A stretch of 64,000 nt of DNA, from the IMG/VR virus record IMGVR_UViG_3300028567_000401, positions 18,995 through 82,994 of that record; one strand, 5' to 3'. Below, one piece after another: positions 3,563-31,797 of this stretch (positions are counted from its first letter, which is position 1; each line of letters begins with the position of its first letter). The notes under the pieces are model-generated. The model was not told the DNA's origin, did not search any database, and saw nothing but the letters and a program-made list of their open reading frames with translations. The stretch is from a virus (Duplodnaviria > Caudoviricetes). Both the position numbers and the translations under genes were made by a program.

Positions 3563-6142
3563 TTAACCGCATTTAGAATTACCACAAGACATGCAAGTTA
3601 AGCACCCCTCTTTAAATTCTAAATGTTCACCACCACATTCAGGACATGTACCTTTACCTTTTTCACCGTCCTTAATGTATTTTTTAATAACACGAGCAAC
3701 ACCATTTTTCCATGTATTTATATGATCTTCTCTAAAACTTAATGAATTAACTAAATGATACACATAAGTCAACGGCATGCGTTGTCTTAAAACACCCGAC
3801 ACAAGTTTAGCATAATTCCAAAATTCAGGATTAAATGCCTGATTTAAACCAGTATGAACTTGTCTATCACCATTACTATCCACATATTCAATATCATATC
3901 GTTTTTTTCGGACTTTTATAAGTTTATTATTACTATCATATTCTTCTATTTCAAAAGTGTTTTTAACGACATCACATTCTTTAATTGAACTTGGTAAATA
4001 TGCAAGCCCATTTTCAAGTTTACCTGTAAAAATTTCATAAGGTCTATTGTCTCGTAAACCCACAACGGCAATCCACTTTTCAAGATTATTCTGAAAACGA
4101 TGCACATCAGCTTTCAATCTTTTAGGTCGTTTTGGCACATGTATTTCACCTTGCGTATTATCTTTCTTTTCTGCTGTTATTAAAACACCGCTTCGTGAAC
4201 CGTCTCGATATACTGTACATCCTTTGCATCCACTTTCCCACGCTGTTTCATAAACTTTTGCAACCAATTCTTCTGTAATATCAGTTGGAAGATTAACGGT
4301 CACCGAAATCGAATGATCAACATGTTTCTGTATGCGACCCTGCATTTCAACTTTCTTAACCCAATCCACATCATTAGCGGTTGCTTTATAATATGGTGAT
4401 GTCATAATAATTTTATTTAATTCTTCATCTGACATCGTTTTGATATGTTCTATATCATATCCATTTATTTCGAGCCAATTTTCAAACTTGTGATGAAAAA
4501 CTAGATATTCAGTCCATGCCAGACCCTCATCGTCAACGAAATCAATACGAACATCCTTTTCTTGTGGATTAATTTTACGCCTACGTTTGTAGAAAACTTC
4601 AAATGCTGGCTCAATACCTGATGTTGTCTGAGTCATAATAGAAACACTGCCCGTTGGCGCAATGGTAAGAAGAGCAATATTTCTACGGCCATTTCTTTTC
4701 ATTGCTTCGTATAAAGTCGAGTTCTTTTCTTTAATTCTTAAAATGAATGGATTATTTTCTTCACGTTTCCAATCATATATTGGGAAAGAACCGCGTTCTT
4801 TTGCCATTATCGTTGAAGATTCATAGGCACACATTTTTAGTGTTTCATGAACCATTTCACTAAACTTTGTTGCTTCTTCAGTACCATAAATTAAGTTTAA
4901 CGCAGCCAACATATCACCTTCACCAGTAACACCCAGTCCCGTTCTTCGTCCCATTCGTGTTTTTTCTTTAATTCTTTCCCATAGGCGACGCTCACATATT
5001 TTAAGAAAATCATCTTCAGGGTCAGAATCTATTTTTTCCAATATTGCATCAATTTTTTCAAGCTCAAGATCTATGATATCATCCATATATCTTTGAGCTT
5101 TCATAACATCACTTTTAAATAAATCCCAATCAAAATATGCGTCTTCGACAAATGAATTGTTTTTATAAAACGGATTTACTACATATCCATATAGATTAAG
5201 TGCAAGCAATCTACAGCTATCATCGGCACAAAGAGGGATTTCACCGCACGGGTTGGTTGATATTGTCTCGAAACCCAAATCATCATAACAATCAGGTACA
5301 CTTTCACGAATTATATGATCCCAAAACAATATTCCTGGTTCTGCTGACTTCCATGCGTTGTGAATAATTTTTTTCCAAAGTTTTTGTGCATCAACTTCTT
5401 TTGTATATTTTGCTTCACCTTTTATTGGAAATTGTTGTTTGTACATTTTTCCATTCATTGCCGATTCCATAAAATCGTCATGGAGTTTAACAGAAATATT
5501 TGCACCTGTTACTTTTCCTTGTGATAATTTCGCATCAATAAAACTTTCAGAATCTGGATGTCGTATTGATATACTTTCCATTAATGCTCCTCGTCTTCCA
5601 TCTTGAGCAACTTCTTTCGTAGTTGACGAAAATCTTTCCATAAATGGAACAACTCCCGTTGATGTTATTGCACTATTTTTTACAGGGCTACCTGCTGGGC
5701 GAATAAATGATAAATCAACACCCACTCCACCCCTACGTTTTTCCAGTTGGGCAATTTCTTGATCAAGTTTTAAAATTCCGCCATAACTGTCAGAGTCGCC
5801 TTCATTTCCGATTACAAAGCAATTACTGAGTGATACAACTTGAAATTCATTACCAATGCCTGACATTGGAGATCCTTGTGGTACAATCCTATTAAATCCT
5901 TTTAATGTTTCATATATTTCTTCTTCCGTTAAAGGATTTGGATAATTTGATTCAATTCTAGCTAGTTCTTTAGCTATTCTACGATGCATATCATCTGGCG
6001 TTAATTCATAATAATCTTGATTATCCTTTAAACAATATTTTTTAATCCATACATCAGTTGCTAATTTATCATTATTAAAATAAGTTAATGTTGATTTATA
6101 TACATCTTCTTTAGTATATTTTGTGTAATTTTCTGTTTCCAT
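3563..6142 (-). CDS. nrdJ: Class II (adenosylcobalamin-dependent) ribonucleotide reductase
   Basis: SLSNCFV, TNPCGEIPL, IAPTGSVS, SISVTVNLP, KGCTVYRDGSR; C-terminal CPECG...CMSCG zinc-binding tail; no small subunit gene seen. Confidence 0.92.
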   Translation of the reverse strand: METENYTKYTKEDVYKSTLTYFNNDKLATDVWIKKYCLKDNQDYYELTPDDMHRRIAKELARIESNYPNPLTEEEIYETLKGFNRIVPQGSPMSGIGNEFQVVSLSNCFVIGNEGDSDSYGGILKLDQEIAQLEKRRGGVGVDLSFIRPAGSPVKNSAITSTGVVPFMERFSSTTKEVAQDGRRGALMESISIRHPDSESFIDAKLSQGKVTGANISVKLHDDFMESAMNGKMYKQQFPIKGEAKYTKEVDAQKLWKKIIHNAWKSAEPGILFWDHIIRESVPDCYDDLGFETISTNPCGEIPLCADDSCRLLALNLYGYVVNPFYKNNSFVEDAYFDWDLFKSDVMKAQRYMDDIIDLELEKIDAILEKIDSDPEDDFLKICERRLWERIKEKTRMGRRTGLGVTGEGDMLAALNLIYGTEEATKFSEMVHETLKMCAYESSTIMAKERGSFPIYDWKREENNPFILRIKEKNSTLYEAMKRNGRRNIALLTIAPTGSVSIMTQTTSGIEPAFEVFYKRRRKINPQEKDVRIDFVDDEGLAWTEYLVFHHKFENWLEINGYDIEHIKTMSDEELNKIIMTSPYYKATANDVDWVKKVEMQGRIQKHVDHSISVTVNLPTDITEELVAKVYETAWESGCKGCTVYRDGSRSGVLITAEKKDNTQGEIHVPKRPKRLKADVHRFQNNLEKWIAVVGLRDNRPYEIFTGKLENGLAYLPSSIKECDVVKNTFEIEEYDSNNKLIKVRKKRYDIEYVDSNGDRQVHTGLNQAFNPEFWNYAKLVSGVLRQRMPLTYVYHLVNSLSFREDHINTWKNGVARVIKKYIKDGEKGKGTCPECGGEHLEFKEGCLTCMSCGNSKCG

Positions 6143-24408: not shown

Positions 24409-26397
24409 TTAATTTGAATTTGGATTTAAAAAACTATTTGCCCATTCCTCAGCAAATCTTTTATCTGCCATGAATATTTGTGCAATTTTATCTGTAGTAG
24501 AATCCATAGGATTTATGTTAACATTATGTGTAACAATTATCCTTTGTTCTGGTAATGTTTGTGGTGAATTTAAAGATTCATTTCTTCTTGCTGCAACTTC
24601 TAAATTTCTTGCTTCTGTTTCTATATTTGCAGCTTGTTTTGTTTTATTAGAATTTATAATATCGTTTGTTAAATCTCGAATATTATTAACAAAAGAACCA
24701 CCAAAACTATTTTTAATATTTATAAGCCCATCCCAATCTCTTATAGCATTTTGCATAAATTTATCCATTTTATCAATACCAGCAGAGCCTAAATCAGCAA
24801 TAGCATCAGATAGATTACCTATAAATTCACTATCTAACCCTAACGCTTTTTCAATTAAATCTGATGCATTTTTTCCTATTGATACCCTTAACGCTCCTCG
24901 AATAAATGAAACGTCTCTTTCAACATTTTCAAGTGCCATAACTTGTCGTCTAGCAACATCTTCAGGTCTCATCTCTTCAAGTAATTGCCTCTGTTTAATA
25001 AGGGTTTCAATATTTTGTTCACTTAAATCTGATAAAGCAATAGATGTTTCTGTTGGTAACATTTGTAATTGTTGTCTCAAATCTACCGGAATATCAATAA
25101 TCATTTGGCCACCTTCCATTCGAGCTAGATTGATTATAAATTCTCTATCTTTTTCATTTATATTCAATCCTTTTCCTGCCATATCCATTGCTGCCTGTTG
25201 CCTTTCCATAGATGCTATAGCACTTCTAGCTAATTCATTATATTCCATACCTAATATTCTAGCAGCTTCTTTAGCTCTTCTAAGATTAACACCGGTTATT
25301 TCAAATCTTCCCTGTTCATTATTAAATGTTGCAAAAGCTTTTGTAGATTCAATTAAGGCATCTTGTAATCCTTCAAGATCGTTAGTTGCCATATACATTA
25401 ATTTTAATGGATCATTTAATGCTCCAACAGCTCCTCCAATTACTTGTAAATTTGCAACTAATTCTAATGCTTTATCTGGTTCCCATACTTGTTCAGCGAG
25501 TTTAAATACTTCAGACATATTAGTTCTAAATTCTATGGACTTTTGGGCCATTCTTTCTAATGATAAAATACCATTTCTAAAACCATACGCATTTATATTT
25601 CTTAAATTTTCATCTACTATTTTAAGTGTTTCCCTAGCATTTAATCCTATCGATTGTGATCTAATTTGTGAATTCTGAACATAAGTTGACATATCTCGAA
25701 GACCTAGACCTATAAATTCAAAATTTCTACCCATATCGCTAAGTCTTTCCATGCCTCCAATAAATTTACTGGCAAGCGCCATCTCTTTTAATGTATCATC
25801 ATTAATTAATTTAAATTTTCCTGAGTTTGATACTAAATTACCAACACTTTCAGCTAATTCGTTAAATCCTATACCAAGTTTTATAGCCCATGGCGAAGCA
25901 TTCATTATTTCTGTTCTAAATGCTTCAGCCAATTCTCCTGTCATTGCTGATTTTACATTTATTTCATTATAAAGTTTATTTATGTTGGTTAAATATAAAA
26001 TAACTTCATTTTGAACTAGTCCTTTAATTGTATTTAATGTTTGTAATGGTTGTTTAAATACATGAAATAAAGATTCGATTCCTTCTCTAGTTTTTTCAAG
26101 AGTACCAAACTCATCTAATTTTGCGGTTCTAAAATCGTATTGAGCTTCCATAACTCGGCCTAAAAATGTTTGACCACCCATCCGACTACCTCTCACAACA
26201 TCACTATAATATGTTCTTTCTTGTTCCGCGGCCTTTAATAAGTCATAATCTTTACTAGCCTGCGCAAACGCATCATCATAGTCATTTCCGCCAGTATTAT
26301 TAAATCCCAAATCTGAAAGGCGTTGAAGTATAAAATCTATTTTTTTACCTTCTCTAGATCTTATAATCGCCATTGCCGCTTCACTAAATAATGCCAT
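24409..26397 (-). CDS. Tape measure protein
   Basis: Helical, Ala/Leu-rich 662 aa; canonical position after tube and chaperone genes, before the baseplate. Confidence 0.7.
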   Translation of the reverse strand: MALFSEAAMAIIRSREGKKIDFILQRLSDLGFNNTGGNDYDDAFAQASKDYDLLKAAEQERTYYSDVVRGSRMGGQTFLGRVMEAQYDFRTAKLDEFGTLEKTREGIESLFHVFKQPLQTLNTIKGLVQNEVILYLTNINKLYNEINVKSAMTGELAEAFRTEIMNASPWAIKLGIGFNELAESVGNLVSNSGKFKLINDDTLKEMALASKFIGGMERLSDMGRNFEFIGLGLRDMSTYVQNSQIRSQSIGLNARETLKIVDENLRNINAYGFRNGILSLERMAQKSIEFRTNMSEVFKLAEQVWEPDKALELVANLQVIGGAVGALNDPLKLMYMATNDLEGLQDALIESTKAFATFNNEQGRFEITGVNLRRAKEAARILGMEYNELARSAIASMERQQAAMDMAGKGLNINEKDREFIINLARMEGGQMIIDIPVDLRQQLQMLPTETSIALSDLSEQNIETLIKQRQLLEEMRPEDVARRQVMALENVERDVSFIRGALRVSIGKNASDLIEKALGLDSEFIGNLSDAIADLGSAGIDKMDKFMQNAIRDWDGLINIKNSFGGSFVNNIRDLTNDIINSNKTKQAANIETEARNLEVAARRNESLNSPQTLPEQRIIVTHNVNINPMDSTTDKIAQIFMADKRFAEEWANSFLNPNSN

Positions 26398-26418
26398 ATT
26401 ATATAAATAGATATATTA

Positions 26419-26601
26419 TTATTTTTTATTATTTTCTTGTTCCAATATATATGTAATATAATATTTTCTTATATAAATAGGCATAGACAAAATATCGCCA
26501 TATGAAAATCCGCGATTAATTAAAAACAAAATCTCTTTTAATTGACCTTCTTTATACTCCGTAGAAAGGACGAAAAAATTCAACCCCAAATCCAATTTCA
26601 A
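26419..26601 (-). CDS. Tail assembly chaperone C-terminal extension, probably expressed by frameshift
   Basis: No ATG start; overlaps the chaperone 3' end in the +1 frame; GFSYGDILSMPIYIRKYYI resembles gpT/gpE'-type extensions. Confidence 0.7.
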   Translation of the reverse strand: MKLDLGLNFFVLSTEYKEGQLKEILFLINRGFSYGDILSMPIYIRKYYITYILEQENNKK

Positions 26602-27307
26602 CTTGGATTTCTTCTCCTGATGGGGTCATTATTTTTTGTGTTAAATCAATTCCAGGTTTATTTTCTATAACATATTTTCGAAAATTTTGTGAATCTACGA
26701 TTGGCATTTCATGTTCCACAAAATTGTATATTTCCATTGGATCTCTATTACCATTAATTGATTTAATTAACATTTCAAGTCTTTTTGTAACAATAGGCGC
26801 TGTTCCAATTCCATTCCAACTATCTCTAATTTTAAGAAGTTCCTCTTCTTGTTTTTGAGTTAAAAAATTAAATGTTATATTAATTTGACTTTTCTTTAAA
26901 AAATATGGATACTCACCATTATTATCAGCGACTAATTTAAAATCTTTTATTTTAAGACGAGATAAATCAACCACAGCATTAAATTTTTCATTTGTTCTAG
27001 GATCAGTTAATGTTAAATTATATTCAGAACCAAAAGCGGTATTCCTTAAAAAAATTAATATCGCTTGTTTATCTTCTTCTAATATATCTTCAACTTTTAA
27101 ATCTTTATCTAGAATTTTTCTTTTTAAAATTTCTTCAATAATTTTACCATTTGTTGTTATATTTGGCGATGCTAAAATGTTTTCATCAGCTGCCGTTAAA
27201 TATGCAACTCTAAGAGAACTTTTTTTATTAGGATACATAATGCCTCTAGTGGGTAACTCAACTACATCATATGCAATTGTTGAATTAATTTTAAATTCTT
27301 CTAACAT
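26552..27307 (-). CDS. Tail assembly chaperone / gp26-like hub assembly protein
   Basis: VELPTRGIMYP...LTAADENIL...ILIFLRNTAFGSEY; lies between tube and tape measure genes. Confidence 0.75.
   Translation of the reverse strand: MLEEFKINSTIAYDVVELPTRGIMYPNKKSSLRVAYLTAADENILASPNITTNGKIIEEILKRKILDKDLKVEDILEEDKQAILIFLRNTAFGSEYNLTLTDPRTNEKFNAVVDLSRLKIKDFKLVADNNGEYPYFLKKSQINITFNFLTQKQEEELLKIRDSWNGIGTAPIVTKRLEMLIKSINGNRDPMEIYNFVEHEMPIVDSQNFRKYVIENKPGIDLTQKIMTPSGEEIQVEIGFGVEFFRPFYGV
26569..26581 (-). promoter_or_regulatory. Candidate +1 programmed ribosomal frameshift site GAA_UUU_UUU_CGU_C
   Basis: UUU_CGU_C six codons before the chaperone stop; a +1 slip enters the downstream ORF. Confidence 0.6.
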
Positions 27308-27377
27308 GTCTTTTTATTTTAGGATGACAAAATTATTTTAAAATATTTTTTTATAAATCCTTAATATTTAATAAATA

Positions 27378-27866
27378 TTAATATAGCTGAATACAACGAT
27401 CCATTCGTAATGTTACATCAATTGTCGCTAAATCATCTCTTGAATAATCTAAGTCTCCAAAATTAAGCCCTGTCATAAATGTACCTTGTAAAAGCCATTT
27501 TTCAACCACAACGCCAGTCGGATCTAACATTTCAAGTTCAACATCTTTTTTATATCCAGCGGCATATCCCATTCTTCCTGTAACAGATTCGGCATGTAAA
27601 CGCATCCATTCCATAAGTGCTTGTGATGCTGATGGGCCGATAGGATCTTTAAATTGAACTCTTAATTCTTCCCAAACAAATCGACCAGCAACATATGTTG
27701 ATGTATTTAAAAATGGAATTTCAGTAGAACCAATTTTAGCAATTGGCCTCGATGCTGAATAAACATACCATTCATTTATACCTAATGTTGATGGAAATCT
27801 TAAAAGAAATCTATTTTTTCGTTTTGGCTCGTAAGGTACGGGCATTTTCATTAATAAATCTGCCAT
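27378..27866 (-). CDS. Tail tube protein (T4 gp19-like)
   Basis: YEPKRKNRF, GRFVWEELRVQFKDPI, GYKKDVELEMLDPTG..VEKWLLQG. Confidence 0.92.
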   Translation of the reverse strand: MADLLMKMPVPYEPKRKNRFLLRFPSTLGINEWYVYSASRPIAKIGSTEIPFLNTSTYVAGRFVWEELRVQFKDPIGPSASQALMEWMRLHAESVTGRMGYAAGYKKDVELEMLDPTGVVVEKWLLQGTFMTGLNFGDLDYSRDDLATIDVTLRMDRCIQLY

Positions 27867-28377: not shown

Positions 28378-28482
28378 TTATATAGAAAAATGTTTTTCTA
28401 ATCCATTCTCATCGCTTCACAGACATTTACCATAAGTGGTTTTACTATGTCTCCACGACTGTTATTCAGGGCATTAACTCCC
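28378..28482 (-). ncRNA. TnpB omegaRNA/reRNA-like scaffold at the IS right end
   Basis: GUCGUGGAGACAU...ACCA-CUUA-UGGU...AUGUCUGUGAAGCGAU. AGACAU/AUGUCU and ACCA/UGGU form stems; GUCGU/GCGAU can pair; a terminal UAGAAAAA/UUUUUCUA hairpin follows. Confidence 0.5.
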
Positions 28483-28821
28483 AAAGCGGGTAATCCTATC
28501 CTTATGCTCAACGAGTATCTTAGCTATATTTTCGTCTGACAAAAGTTGAATCATCTTCTTTCTTTCGTCATTAAGCCCGCTACCACATTCTTCCACTACT
28601 TTTGACACAATCCACCCATTAGCAGAACAAAACTCCTGAACTCTTTTCGACTGTGAGATTAAATTCGACCTATTTTCAGATGACGATACTCTCGCATATA
28701 CAGCTACAACTTCTTTTTTTTGCGGTGTATCATCTGGAACAATTATAGTACCACTATTGAACATATTCCATGCAGTCCTATATGTAACTCCTAATTATTT
28801 TGTGTATTTACTTAATTTCAT
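28474..28821 (-). pseudogene. tnpA: IS607 TnpA serine recombinase pseudogene
   Basis: MKLSKYTK*LGVTYRTAW (in-frame TAA at 28795-28797), VYARVSS, EECGSGLNDERK, VEHKDRITRFG, then truncated. Confidence 0.9.
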
Positions 28822-28941: not shown

Positions 28942-31797
28942 TTAAATATTCTCAAATGATGCGCCAGTTGGTGTAATTATAAATTCGATATCAATAAATT
29001 CTAATGATCTTGTTGGTTTAATATAAATTTTACCTCTAAGAGTATTTTGATCTATATCTTCTGGATCATTTGATACAACAAGACGGAAGTCATAAAGTCC
29101 TCTTTCTTTTTTAATATTTTCAAGTATTGGATTAACAAGTCTTGTAAATTCTGCTCGTACTTGTTCATCATTCTGTTCAAAAAGCAATCTCACAGCCACT
29201 GCGGCAATAAGTTTTCTTGCTCTTAATAATAATCTTCTTACATTGATTCTATCAAGGGCACTTTCTTTTAGTTGGAGTGTTTTATTACCCCAAATAATTG
29301 GACCAGTATCAGCAAACGTCGCAATTGGATTAATCCTTTCTCTATATAAATCATCTCTTTCATCAAGTGTAAGTTTCTTATATGCCTTAATTGCATTAAC
29401 AATACCTCTAGAATATCCAGCTACAGCAAACCAGGGATATGAAACATTATCTGTTAAAGCAATATTTCTTAAAACTTCTCCAGTTGGCGGAATATAAAGT
29501 TGTGTTGAATTTTCATTATCTCTAATTTGTATCCAGGGCCAATATGTGGCTGAATAGTTTGAATCAAGATTTACGGTATCGAGAAGTCCAATAATATCAT
29601 CTACTGTAGTTGCATAACCCGGTGCTGATATTATATACAGTGAATCTGCTCGATCTTTTTCAACCATATCAATAGATTCTTCGGTTAATGATGAATGATC
29701 ATAAAAATTTATTCCGGGTGTTGCAAAAATATTAATGTCAACAGCTTCAGCATTAGCGAATGTTTGTATACCTGTTAAATATGCGTAATAATCTGAATTA
29801 CCAACTGTGTCATTAAAACATCCGCCATTACTAAAATTATTATCATCATATGTAATTTTACCAAATTTATATTCATCACCAAATGTTCTAACATTTCGGT
29901 AAATATCCCATCCATCAAACCCACCCGCTAGAGCAAGTGTGAATTTACGATAGATTTTATCTTTTAATTTATTGTTATCACCGCCAGTTTGTCCTTCTAA
30001 ATCATATGGTGTACAATCAAATTCAAATCCAGTAATTGTTGAGCCAGTTATAGTAGATGCTTGAGATGATAGATGAAATCCTGGTGTTGTTGTTAAAGAT
30101 GCTAGTTGTTCAGGATCTCCTTTATATTTGAATAAACTTAAATCATATCCTGTTTGATTTGATAATCCTAACATAACTTTTCTAAGTTTATCTCCAGAAA
30201 AATCAACAGGTGTTCCATCCCAATTATATCTAACTATATCTCCAGCATTATAATATTTTGTCTTATATTTAATTCCGCCTAATACTGCTCCACCATTAAG
30301 TGAACCAGCTGTAAATCCTCTAAATCCTGCAGGAATTGCATCAACAGGATGATCATTAGACATTTCAAGCATAATATATTTTGATCTAAGTTTATATTGT
30401 CCATCTGTAGTACCAATTCTTAATGCAACGTAGCCAGGTAAATCTGGATTCATTGAACATCTTGAGAATCTTTCAAGTGCAACAATATTATCATCAGTAT
30501 CATAAAAATCACGTACTAAGATATCAAATTCAGCTGTTTCAAGATCGATATTTACTATACTTATTTTAATTTGTGTGTTCGATGCATCACCATCAGAAAT
30601 AGATATAACTCTGAATAAGTCAGCAACAATTCCGCCACGTACTTCAGAGACCACATATGGAGATGCTGATGTTTTCCATTCAGTTAAAAAGTCTTTATTA
30701 ACATTATGTACAACTGGTGTAAGACTTAATCCTCTTATTAATCCACGATCTTTTAATGATCGAACCAAATTTGGATATGATTCAAAGACATAAAGTGGAT
30801 ATTGTTCTTCATTTTTATCAAATACCCCGGTTCCTAATACCTTAGAAATATATTTAGTTGAAGAATCATTTAAAGAACATATAAATGAATGTGTTTGCCC
30901 GCTTTCACCATCTGTTGTAACAGTAATTGTAAATTCGCCAAAAGGATTTGTTAAAATTGTTTCACTATTTAATGTTACTCCAGTTTGGGTAGTTATTTGT
31001 AAATTTAATTTCGAATGAACGTATGAACCTCGTGATCTAAGAGCAGCAACTGCAATTTTATCATATGTTTTTTCTGCAACATCATATGTAAATCTAGTTA
31101 CGTTAAATTCTCCTGAAGATTCGGAATATACGAACAAATATGAATAAATTTCATTGTCATTTTCATTATAAAAATTATTATACCAAGCAAAGTTAGTAAC
31201 ATCTCCAATTGGACCGGTAATTTTTAAAGATGCAGTTAATTCTGATGTGGCAGATGATGGAACAAATCCTATGGTAAACCATTCACCATTAGCATATGAT
31301 TTTTTGATTATATAATTAGTAACTGAAAAACCATCTACTGCAGTTTTACCTGATAATTCAGAATAAAAACTACTTTGTGTCATACCAGTTAATGTGGGTA
31401 TAAAAGAATTATTATCTTCTATTCTATCAGGAACTGATGTTGAATCAAAAACAGGTGCACCTAATGTTACAATACCATAAGTTTTATCAGGTCTATATCC
31501 TGTTAAACCAAGTATTCTTGTCACAAATAATTGATTAGATTCTTGTAAGTATGATTTGGCAAAATAAGGAAGTTCATATGATGGATTTCCATTACCATCT
31601 TTTTTCGGTGATGTTGATCCAAAATATGTACGAAACTCATTAAAATTTGTTATCAGAACAGGTTCAAATGCAGGACCCTTTAATGTTTCACCTACCATAC
31701 CTAATGTTGTTACGCCAACACTTTGCGCTACGAATGTTAAATCTTTCTCAGATGTGTATACACCCGGAGAAACAAAAACTCTATTTGATGTTGCCAT
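28942..31797 (-). CDS. Tail sheath protein (T4 gp18-like)
   Basis: FVSPGVYTSEKD, GETLKGPAFEP, YPWFAVAGYSRG, WGNKTL, RINVRRLL, FEQND, IYIKPTRSLEFI. Confidence 0.95.
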   Translation of the reverse strand: MATSNRVFVSPGVYTSEKDLTFVAQSVGVTTLGMVGETLKGPAFEPVLITNFNEFRTYFGSTSPKKDGNGNPSYELPYFAKSYLQESNQLFVTRILGLTGYRPDKTYGIVTLGAPVFDSTSVPDRIEDNNSFIPTLTGMTQSSFYSELSGKTAVDGFSVTNYIIKKSYANGEWFTIGFVPSSATSELTASLKITGPIGDVTNFAWYNNFYNENDNEIYSYLFVYSESSGEFNVTRFTYDVAEKTYDKIAVAALRSRGSYVHSKLNLQITTQTGVTLNSETILTNPFGEFTITVTTDGESGQTHSFICSLNDSSTKYISKVLGTGVFDKNEEQYPLYVFESYPNLVRSLKDRGLIRGLSLTPVVHNVNKDFLTEWKTSASPYVVSEVRGGIVADLFRVISISDGDASNTQIKISIVNIDLETAEFDILVRDFYDTDDNIVALERFSRCSMNPDLPGYVALRIGTTDGQYKLRSKYIMLEMSNDHPVDAIPAGFRGFTAGSLNGGAVLGGIKYKTKYYNAGDIVRYNWDGTPVDFSGDKLRKVMLGLSNQTGYDLSLFKYKGDPEQLASLTTTPGFHLSSQASTITGSTITGFEFDCTPYDLEGQTGGDNNKLKDKIYRKFTLALAGGFDGWDIYRNVRTFGDEYKFGKITYDDNNFSNGGCFNDTVGNSDYYAYLTGIQTFANAEAVDINIFATPGINFYDHSSLTEESIDMVEKDRADSLYIISAPGYATTVDDIIGLLDTVNLDSNYSATYWPWIQIRDNENSTQLYIPPTGEVLRNIALTDNVSYPWFAVAGYSRGIVNAIKAYKKLTLDERDDLYRERINPIATFADTGPIIWGNKTLQLKESALDRINVRRLLLRARKLIAAVAVRLLFEQNDEQVRAEFTRLVNPILENIKKERGLYDFRLVVSNDPEDIDQNTLRGKIYIKPTRSLEFIDIEFIITPTGASFENI

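Follow-up and report, generated by a model that had tools for sequence, protein, structure and literature searches.

Introduction

Frameshifts in the genes of tail assembly chaperones are among the most conserved recoding events in viruses, and nearly all of them have been described as -1 shifts, with T4 long quoted as the exception (PMC5009743). The lambda proteins gpG and gpGT and the conservation of the tail chaperone frameshift were described by Xu, Hendrix and Duda (2004; reviewed in PMC5009743). The shift in such genes may be -1, -2 or +1; phage Mu uses -2, and for the archaeal myovirus HSTV-2 a shift of +1 has been inferred as probable (PMC5009743). For the T4-like phages, gp26 and gp51 have been proposed as the long-missing tail chaperones, the short and the long form being made from two genes and without a frameshift (Vladimirov, Gautam and Davidson 2022, as cited in PMC10274946, PMC12846349 and PMC9024508). 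The subject of the present analysis is a gene for a protein of 251 amino acids (aa) from the gp26/gp51 family, together with an open reading frame (ORF) that overlaps its 3' end, on a stretch of 64,000 nucleotides (nt) from the tailed-phage record IMGVR_UViG_3300028567_000401. This whole stretch is referred to as the window, and all coordinates refer to it unless another locus is named. The existence of a system of short and long chaperones is known; what appears to be new is a predicted +1 shift at a Phe-Phe site read in two frames within the gp26/gp51 family, a comparison for which the 2022 proposal on T4 was taken from its description in the citing papers.

Among the known +1 frameshift sites, that of influenza A PA-X is UCC_UUU_CGU, and the amalgaviruses use UUU_CGN. 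In the prfB-type +1 shift, the A site holds a stop codon, and a stimulator resembling a Shine-Dalgarno sequence lies about 3 nt upstream. Listeria phage PSA is said to employ +1 shifts in its capsid and tail genes, with the slip occurring at a proline codon next to the stop codon, in work attributed to Zimmer et al. from 2003. In bacteria, a propensity for +1 shifts is documented for UUU with a pyrimidine as the next base, from studies in E. coli and from the YopN-TyeA fusion of Yersinia (PMC5009743).

A chaperone gene with an extension in the +1 frame

The 251-aa protein matches the Pfam family PF12322 ('T4 bacteriophage base plate protein', T4_baseplate) over residues 28-244 with 31.6 bits, at a curated cutoff of 24.5, and phrog_150 ('baseplate hub') over profile positions 17-233 of 282 (E = 3.6e-8). 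A total of 3112 homologs were found, and the top 120 of them are all about 250 aa long. Both position and family support the identification of the gene as a tail assembly chaperone. It is the only PF12322 gene in the window, and thus the T4-like layout with one short and one long gene does not occur there.

All genes in the tail part of the window lie on the minus strand. At its 3' end, the 251-aa gene reads GGA TTT GGG GTT GAA TTT TTT CGT CCT TTC TAC GGA GTA TAA, with the 0-frame stop TAA at 26552-26554. The overlapping ORF runs from stop to stop over 26419-26625 and is in the +1 frame of the 251-aa gene, as (27307-26625) mod 3 = 1. Its sole Met occurs late, at SMPIY, so that no ATG precedes the conserved part. 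The -1 frame has a TGA just before the proposed slip site and is closed again 13 codons later. Joining the 0 frame to the +1 frame after the second Phe gives a product of 245 + 50 = 295 aa with the junction ...GVEFF-VLSTEYK, and the predicted junction peptide of this long form is ...GFGVEFFVLSTEYK. The initial annotation, made from the sequence alone, had given the same chaperone end, a +1 ORF without ATG, a -1 frame closing after about 13 codons and a 295-aa fusion, and all of these were reproduced when the sequence was re-read and translated. The elements of the locus are as follows:

26552 to 27307, minus strand: short chaperone gene, 0 frame, 251 aa, PF12322/phrog_150 family (T4 gp26/gp51), ending in ...GFGVEFFRPFYGV and the stop codon
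26584 to 26587, minus strand: invariant GGGG, 5 nt upstream of the U-run
26572 to 26578, minus strand: proposed slip site UUU_UUU_C, where a P-site tRNA-Phe on the second UUU (26573-26575) would re-pair with UUC (26572-26574)
26570 to 26572, minus strand: 0-frame A-site codon CGU (Arg), a position occupied by CGN throughout the clade
26552 to 26571, minus strand: dual-frame stretch, (R)PFYGV and stop in the 0 frame, VLSTEYK in the +1 frame
26419 to 26571, minus strand: +1-frame extension of 50 codons (VLSTEYK...NNKK) plus stop, from translation and alignment A4

It is very probable that the frame changes to +1 in a programmed manner and that a long form of the chaperone results. Among the possible mechanisms, a +1 slip of the ribosome, with tRNA-Phe moving on UUU_Y, has the best support and is likely. 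Under this mechanism, the majority of ribosomes would end at the TAA and produce the 251-aa short form. In a minority, the P-site tRNA-Phe would be positioned on the second UUU of GAA_UUU_UUU_CGU_C while a little-used CGN Arg codon is waiting in the A site, where the ribosome may pause. The tRNA-Phe could then slip one base forward onto UUC, and the next codon read would be GUC. In this way a helical domain of 50 residues would be added, giving the 295-aa long form. By analogy with lambda gpG/gpGT, many short and few long copies would coat the tape measure protein, presumed to be encoded just downstream, during the assembly of the tail tube; the extension would recruit another tail component, and both forms would be absent from the virion.

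The locus resembles lambda gpG/gpGT in several respects. The gene lies between those of the tube and the tape measure protein (the latter assigned here by position), the frame changes a few codons before the stop, and a short product would share its N-terminus with a longer one whose extension lacks its own start. Unlike in lambda, the shift would go to +1 instead of -1. An X_XXY_YYZ heptamer is missing, and in the window as well as in its relatives a stop closes the -1 frame at or near the site. The chaperone domain also differs, with about 245 aa compared to about 140 and membership in another family (PF12322), and the extension is short, with 50-100 aa.

Conservation of the extension and its frame

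Related loci were collected in three sweeps of a viral contig collection and from cultured phages. After the removal of duplicates, 217 unique loci remained, which form three clades. Clade A, to which the window belongs, comprises chaperones that are 60-93% identical to that of the window, while clades B and C, with 151 loci together, are about 28-33% identical to it. The three clades are just 28-45% identical to one another. A DNA-level search of the phage collection returned no relatives, and these are detectable only at the protein level.

A hidden Markov model (HMM) of the extension, built from alignment A4 (93 sequences), was run on all three forward frames around the end of the gene. The extension was found in the +1 frame only in 216 of the 217 loci, and the last locus ends with its contig 3 nt after the stop. 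No extension in the 0 or the -1 frame was detected among the 217 loci. A +1 layout in so many loci is far beyond chance. The cultured phages immuto, Mel-JY01, RM378 and Bacillus HSE3 likewise carry the extension at +1. The extension is recognizable by the signature FF-x-L-x-x-(D/E)Y, a hydrophobic helix, G-F-(S/T) and MP-x-x-x-R-(R/K)-(Y/F)-Y, or, in the fuller motif of the helical domain derived from the alignment, by (S/T)xEY..L..I....GF(S/T)..D(I/V)..MP...R(R/K)(Y/F)Y. A profile search identified 1385 carrier proteins in 1.84 billion representatives. The extension had no sequence match in Pfam, PHROG or the PDB.

The pattern of conservation is also informative on the frame. Past the 0-frame stop, the mean conservation of alignment columns is 0.79, 0.88 and 0.63 for the first, second and third +1 codon position, which therefore fits coding in the +1 frame. 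The dual-frame stretch is near-invariant at the nucleotide level within the clade, with a mean column conservation of 0.94, 1.00 and 0.89 by 0-frame codon position, and the clade A stretch GAR TTY TTT CGN CCT TTC TAY GGA shows almost no nucleotide variation. The tail of the 0-frame product that follows the FF, RPFYG(V/I/L), is itself conserved.

These data bear on the possibility that a sequencing or assembly error, or the decay of a pseudogene, split a single gene by an indel in the homopolymer. Homopolymers are indeed error-prone, and P0231, a public clade A protein of 158 aa, reads through in a shifted frame. However, the layout is common to 217 loci, and the conserved 0-frame tail is also present on the separate short genes of a two-gene lineage described below. 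Moreover, the region 26200-27400 is matched with 0 differences and 0 gaps by contigs from three runs (2016 activated sludge, 2020 wastewater and 2023 digester), although the window may itself derive from one of these contigs. The probability of an error or a pseudogene is therefore considered practically negligible. P0231 enters the extension by a frame change about ten codons upstream of the usual site; rather than a natural fusion, it probably represents a mutant or an error in sequencing. In 15 public DNA runs, which come from wastewater, activated sludge, digesters and samples labeled as soil, every sampled word of the stretch was found. One metatranscriptome contig spans only 27230-27400, outside the slip site.

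Alternatively, the extension could be a small separate gene that starts from one of four in-frame TTG codons upstream of it in the window (26601, 26595, 26589 or 26583), the first of which has an AGGAG 12 nt before it. Public gene callers often treat the extension in this manner and report a separate protein of 50-120 aa, which is often forced to start inside the conserved domain. Such a gene is extremely unlikely, since 70 of the 217 loci contain no ATG, GTG or TTG between the upstream +1-frame stop and the conserved FF, and in 66 loci this stop is three codons or fewer away from the FF. In addition, the conserved FF itself falls in the overlap. Independent initiation at the TTG, homologs with a -1 arrangement and a 1-nt assembly error had been named in the initial annotation as outcomes that would speak against its +1 reading, and the related loci and the independent contigs gave a negative answer on all three. 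Its view of the downstream ORF as a chaperone extension that can be joined only through the +1 frame is supported. In Bacillus phage vB_BceM-HSE3 (L252, 2489-3416) and Rhodothermus phage RM378 (L251, 2498-3377), the extension is annotated as a separate hypothetical protein, and that of RM378 is very divergent.

The strongest evidence against a separate little gene is provided by natural in-frame fusions. About 10 of the top 150 matches to the extension profile are proteins of about 300 aa in which the PF12322 domain is continuous with the extension in frame. On the contigs of these fusions, a short PF12322 gene (284-289 aa) is located directly before the long gene and ends in ...FFWPGLNE or ...FMWPNVS and the stop. 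These short genes share their C-terminal tail with the 0-frame product of the window. The two-gene loci include L166 (4139-5927) as well as L169 and L170 (both 4126-5927), with short proteins of 284-289 aa and long ones of 308 aa, and the gene order in the relatives L166-L170 is sheath, tube, short gene, long gene and a gene for 1009 aa. Thus, the sister lineage uses two genes for its short and its long chaperone, and in the lineage of the window these same coding units overlap within a single gene. The tandem arrangement of short and long genes in the sister lineage implies that both forms are needed.

Position and sequence of the proposed slip site

The position of the shift can be bracketed by stop codons. 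In about 20 clade A loci, a +1-frame TAG stands directly before the GAR codon, the preceding codon being GTA, and in clades B and C the +1 frame of many loci is closed by a stop one codon ahead of the FF. On the other side, the 0-frame stop follows only 3-4 codons past the FF in Mel-JY01 (FFWPK and stop) and RM378 (FFWNKL and stop). Because the upstream +1 stops and the early 0-frame stops bracket it, the shift is confined to about six codons centered on the Phe-Phe pair, which is read in both frames. The sequences at the site are distributed as follows:

Clade A: TTT_TTT_CGN in 65 loci and TTC_TTT_CGC in 1 locus, so that TT(T/C)_TTT_CGN covers 66/66 unique loci
Clade B: TTT_TTT_TGG in 35, TTT_TTT_TAC in 34, TTT_CTT_TGG in 3 and TTC_TTT_T.. 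in 2 loci
Clade C: TTT_TTT_TGG in 56, TTT_CTT_TGG in 16, TTT_CTT_TAC in 2, TTT_TTT_TTC in 2 and TTT_TTT_TAC in 1 locus
Elsewhere: TTT_CTA_TTC in uncultured phage LR756508, TTC_TTT_CGT_C in HSE3 and TTT_TTT_TGG in RM378

All 217 loci, and also LR756508, immuto, Mel-JY01, RM378 and HSE3, have a UUU in the 0 frame with C or U as the next base. The candidate slip site common to the whole family is therefore UUU plus a pyrimidine, on which tRNA-Phe could re-pair one base forward. The slip from UUU to UUC suggested in the initial annotation fits every variant of the site that was seen.

In contrast, its description of the site as a PA-X-type UUU_CGU motif was too narrow. UUU_CGN was seen in clade A and HSE3 only, and none of the 151 loci of clades B and C has CGN at the site, the two clades using UUU_UUU_U(GG/AC) or UUU_CUU_U instead. 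Within clade A, the Arg codon is CGN in 72/72 loci (CGC 44, CGT 21, CGA 4 and CGG 3), and the E-site UCC of PA-X is absent. At a control Phe-Arg pair, which is likewise conserved and lies 36 codons further upstream in this gene, the Arg codon is AGA or AGG in 60/63 loci. The difference between the slip site and this control indicates selection on the first base of the codon that follows UUU. Since only CGN, and not AGR, would allow tRNA-Phe to re-pair, the bias towards CGN fits a +1 slip. The third base of CGN is free, and CGU as such is therefore not required. In the genes of the window, AGA accounts for 65% of the Arg codons, CGT for 12% and CGC for 2.4%. The initial annotation had proposed to check the conservation of TTT CGT C and of the +1 overlap; the overlap is conserved, whereas CGT itself is not.

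The likeness to PA-X and the amalgaviruses lies in the UUU_CGN_C core, the predicted re-pairing of tRNA-Phe on UUC and the little-used CGN in the A site. Furthermore, there is no obvious RNA structure that could serve as stimulator, and a low-level shift would add a short C-terminal domain, which is a prediction in the present case. Unlike in PA-X, the E-site codon is TTT or TTC and not UCC, and the host ribosome is bacterial. The likeness is a convergent use of a generally slippery tetranucleotide. The claim of a eukaryotic-virus-type signal in the initial annotation is not supported, as the shared denominator is UUU plus pyrimidine, which is already listed as +1-prone in bacteria (PMC5009743). 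With the bacterial UUU_Ynn sites, the locus shares a 0-frame UUU plus pyrimidine and the fact that no stop codon is needed. It differs from them in that the site is embedded in a dual-frame Phe-Phe pair and has been kept over deep divergence in a structural module of phages.

A further conserved element in clade A is the GGGG at 26584-26587. Its Gly codon is GGG in 67/67 unique loci of the clade, although GGG makes up only 4.9% of the Gly codons in the window and the neighboring wobble positions vary freely in clade A. The GGGG is not conserved in clades B and C. It may act as a Shine-Dalgarno-like stimulator as in prfB. In comparison to prfB, no stop codon is present at the site, and the GGGG located 5 nt before the U-run is a feature of clade A only. 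The GGG_G was also considered as a slip site itself and rejected, as a +1-frame TAG follows it directly in about 20 loci. No phage tRNA genes that might tune decoding were found in the window or in its 83-kb contig.

Alternative routes to the same frame

Most loci carry a run of six or seven U at the site, and on such runs two other processes could reach the same frame as a +1 slip. The first is transcriptional slippage, in which the omission of one U from the U6 or U7 run by the RNA polymerase would leave a fraction of the mRNAs with the long form in a single frame. The loss of one base gives a protein identical to that of the +1 ribosomal slip. An uninterrupted run of at least six Ts is present at the site in 189 of the 217 loci; U7 or U8 occurs in 128 of the 151 loci of clades B and C, and the window has U6 followed by C. 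However, about 26 loci have runs of just 3-4 Ts, and their extension is intact in the +1 frame. These interrupted runs include TTT_CTT_TGG/TAC in 21 loci, TTC_TTT_Y in 3 loci, TTT_CTA_TTC in LR756508 and TTC_TTT_CGT in HSE3. The form TTT_CTT_TGG is retained throughout a subclade whose members are down to a protein identity of about 60%. Transcriptional slippage needs long runs, usually of 7-9 or more, and three-T runs are not expected to support it (PMC5009743). As far as the 2022 work on gp26/gp51 is described in PMC10274946, the alternative given there is that of two separate genes and not slippage. For these reasons, transcriptional slippage is regarded as unlikely.

The second process is a -2 ribosomal frameshift, in which the P-site tRNA-Phe slides back by two bases and one extra Phe is incorporated. 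A shift of -2 leads to the same frame as +1, U6 and U7 permit perfect re-pairing two bases back, and the tail chaperone of Mu uses this shift (PMC5009743). In the variants TTC_TTT_Y, TTT_CTT_T and TTT_CTA_T, however, the middle base of the codon would be mismatched after a backward move, while re-pairing is still possible after the +1 move. The probability of a -2 shift is accordingly rated as very small. Mu and HSTV-2 reach the same relative frame as the locus described here, and the direction of the shift is not fixed among tail chaperones. The slip sites of Mu, HSTV-2 and PSA are different, and these cases represent single phages or small groups and not hundreds of loci.

Some observations weigh against a ribosomal +1 slip of tRNA-Phe and the function derived from it. 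As mentioned, most loci have a U6 or U7 run, where RNA polymerase slippage or a -2 shift could lead to the same frame. CGT is a minor codon with 12% of Arg but is not rare in the genes of the window. TTT_CGN is insufficient as a signal by itself, as it occurs in frame 10 times in these genes. One of these occurrences is a second in-frame TTT_CGA (QNFRKYV) in the chaperone gene, at codons 209-210 (26678-26683, minus strand), where a +1 slip would run into a stop after four codons. Either the shift is weak everywhere, as for PA-X, or the context matters. There is also no conserved RNA structure downstream of the site, as the RNAalifold consensus of 67 clade sequences reaches only -4.7 kcal/mol and shows no stem past the site. 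Finally, the 662-aa gene downstream is identified as tape measure gene by position only, and for this phage the long product and the level of shifting are predictions based on the sequence. The relatives almost always have TTT/TTC followed by AGA/AGG at the Phe-Arg pair of codons 209-210, and the TTT_CGA of the window is an exception that represents a natural control site.

Relationship to T4 gp26/gp51 and predicted fold

Both T4 gp26 (208 aa) and gp51 (249 aa) match PF12322 strongly, and they also match phrog_150. For gp51, the PF12322 match covers residues 1-201 with E = 3.9e-52 (T4 locus L085, 1803-3229), and therefore gp26 and gp51 are paralogs. Relative to gp26, gp51 has about 48 extra residues at its C-terminus. 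The C-terminus of gp26 reads ...KEFFELL, from which it follows that the Phe-Phe motif is old and predates the frameshift lineages. In T4, genes 26 and 51 are transcribed divergently and are located away from the tube gene. The locus of the window resembles the T4 system in passing the PF12322 threshold and in the two-gene layout with a short and a long gene that is found in its relatives. It differs in the use of one gene for both forms by way of a +1 change, and sequence homology between the extension and the tail of gp51 could not be demonstrated. In this comparison, hhalign gave a probability of 0.1%, and an HMM of 10 natural long forms aligned to the gp51 core only. A second domain, PF28602, is listed publicly for relatives of gp51, but not for the long paralogs. 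The envelope of the phrog_150 match runs to the end of both gp51 and the long forms, which is a weak pointer to homology with the gp51 tail.

The structure of the natural long form P0209, one of the long paralogs, was predicted with a pLDDT of 91.5 and a pTM of 0.83. Among 48,161 solved chains, the top three matches to this model were YqbN 3klu (Z 6.1, root mean square deviation 3.3, 80 aligned residues), 3fgx (Z 5.8) and the HK97 chaperone 2ob9 (Z 5.5). The alignments of these three chains are confined to residues 1-93 of P0209, and their Z values are below the level that is safe alone. Two of these three matches (3klu and 2ob9) are tail assembly chaperones, and 3fgx is uncharacterized. A Foldseek search of the long-form model against the PDB returned nothing significant. 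The modeled N-terminal domain of the natural long form thus resembles the solved chaperones of HK97 (2ob9) and YqbN (3klu), which is only suggestive of a chaperone fold. In the model, the extension is predicted as a confident helical unit. When the extension (A4) and the tail tube protein (A7) were modeled as a complex, the score was 0.00, which is silent on binding either way.

Taken together with T4, the family offers three solutions to the same task, namely a frameshift, tandem paralogs and dispersed paralogs. A tentative reading, which we consider somewhat less probable than its opposite, is that the +1 shift on the dual-frame Phe-Phe site (UUU_YUU_Y) is the ancestral, family-wide route to a long form of the gp26/gp51 type. 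The two-gene systems of T4 and of L166/L169 would then be derived, and the GGGG of clade A would be a stimulator. If this were true, it would be the largest and most deeply conserved family of +1 recoding known in phages and a natural system for +1 frameshifting in hosts such as Bacteroidota, and the 'T4 exception' would be closed. Even apart from the ancestral state, the locus suggests that the T4 gp26/gp51 family also obeys the rule of paired short and long forms, in this case through a +1 change at a site that is very simple.

There are practical consequences for annotation. In hundreds of public phage genomes and metagenome bins, including those of immuto, Mel-JY01, RM378 and HSE3, the extension is annotated as a separate hypothetical protein or not at all. 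A rule stating that a PF12322 gene ending in F-F-(W/Y/R)-P is to be joined at +1 would correct such annotations. The natural variants of the site (U7, UUU_CUU_U and UUU_CGN) also represent a ready mutational series for +1 slippage on bacterial ribosomes.

Gene neighborhood

On the minus strand, the gene order is tail sheath, a resolvase-like fragment, tail tube, the 251-aa gene, the small overlapping ORF, the 662-aa gene and much larger virion genes. The neighbors relevant for the assignment by position are the following:

28942 to 31797, minus strand: tail sheath gene (phrog_23, E = 4.9e-64; Pfam Phage_sheath_1 and Phage_sheath_1C)
27378 to 27866, minus strand: tail tube gene, directly upstream of the 251-aa gene (phrog_4542 'tail tube protein', E = 1.3e-24; weak match to Pfam Phage_T4_gp19)
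24409 to 26397, minus strand: 662-aa gene, next downstream, tape measure protein by position only

The 662-aa gene has no match in Pfam, PHROG or NCBIfam, and its comparison with the tape measure protein of Flavobacterium phage immuto gave no significant similarity. In the relatives, an annotated tape measure gene or a gene of that size is found at its position. The order of tube, chaperone and tape-measure-sized gene is common to Flavobacterium phage immuto, Microcystis phage Mel-JY01, Bacillus phage HSE3 and uncultured phage LR756508. Antisense within the 662-aa gene, a 402-aa ORF on the plus strand (24470-25678) has most likely arisen by chance because the DNA is AT-rich; the 83-kb contig that holds the window has a G+C content of 29%. 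A 96-aa ORF located between the genes for sheath and tube (28474-28764, minus strand) encodes the N-terminal domain of a serine resolvase (Pfam Resolvase, E = 1.3e-12; phrog_6620 'transposase') and has the appearance of a mobile-element fragment.

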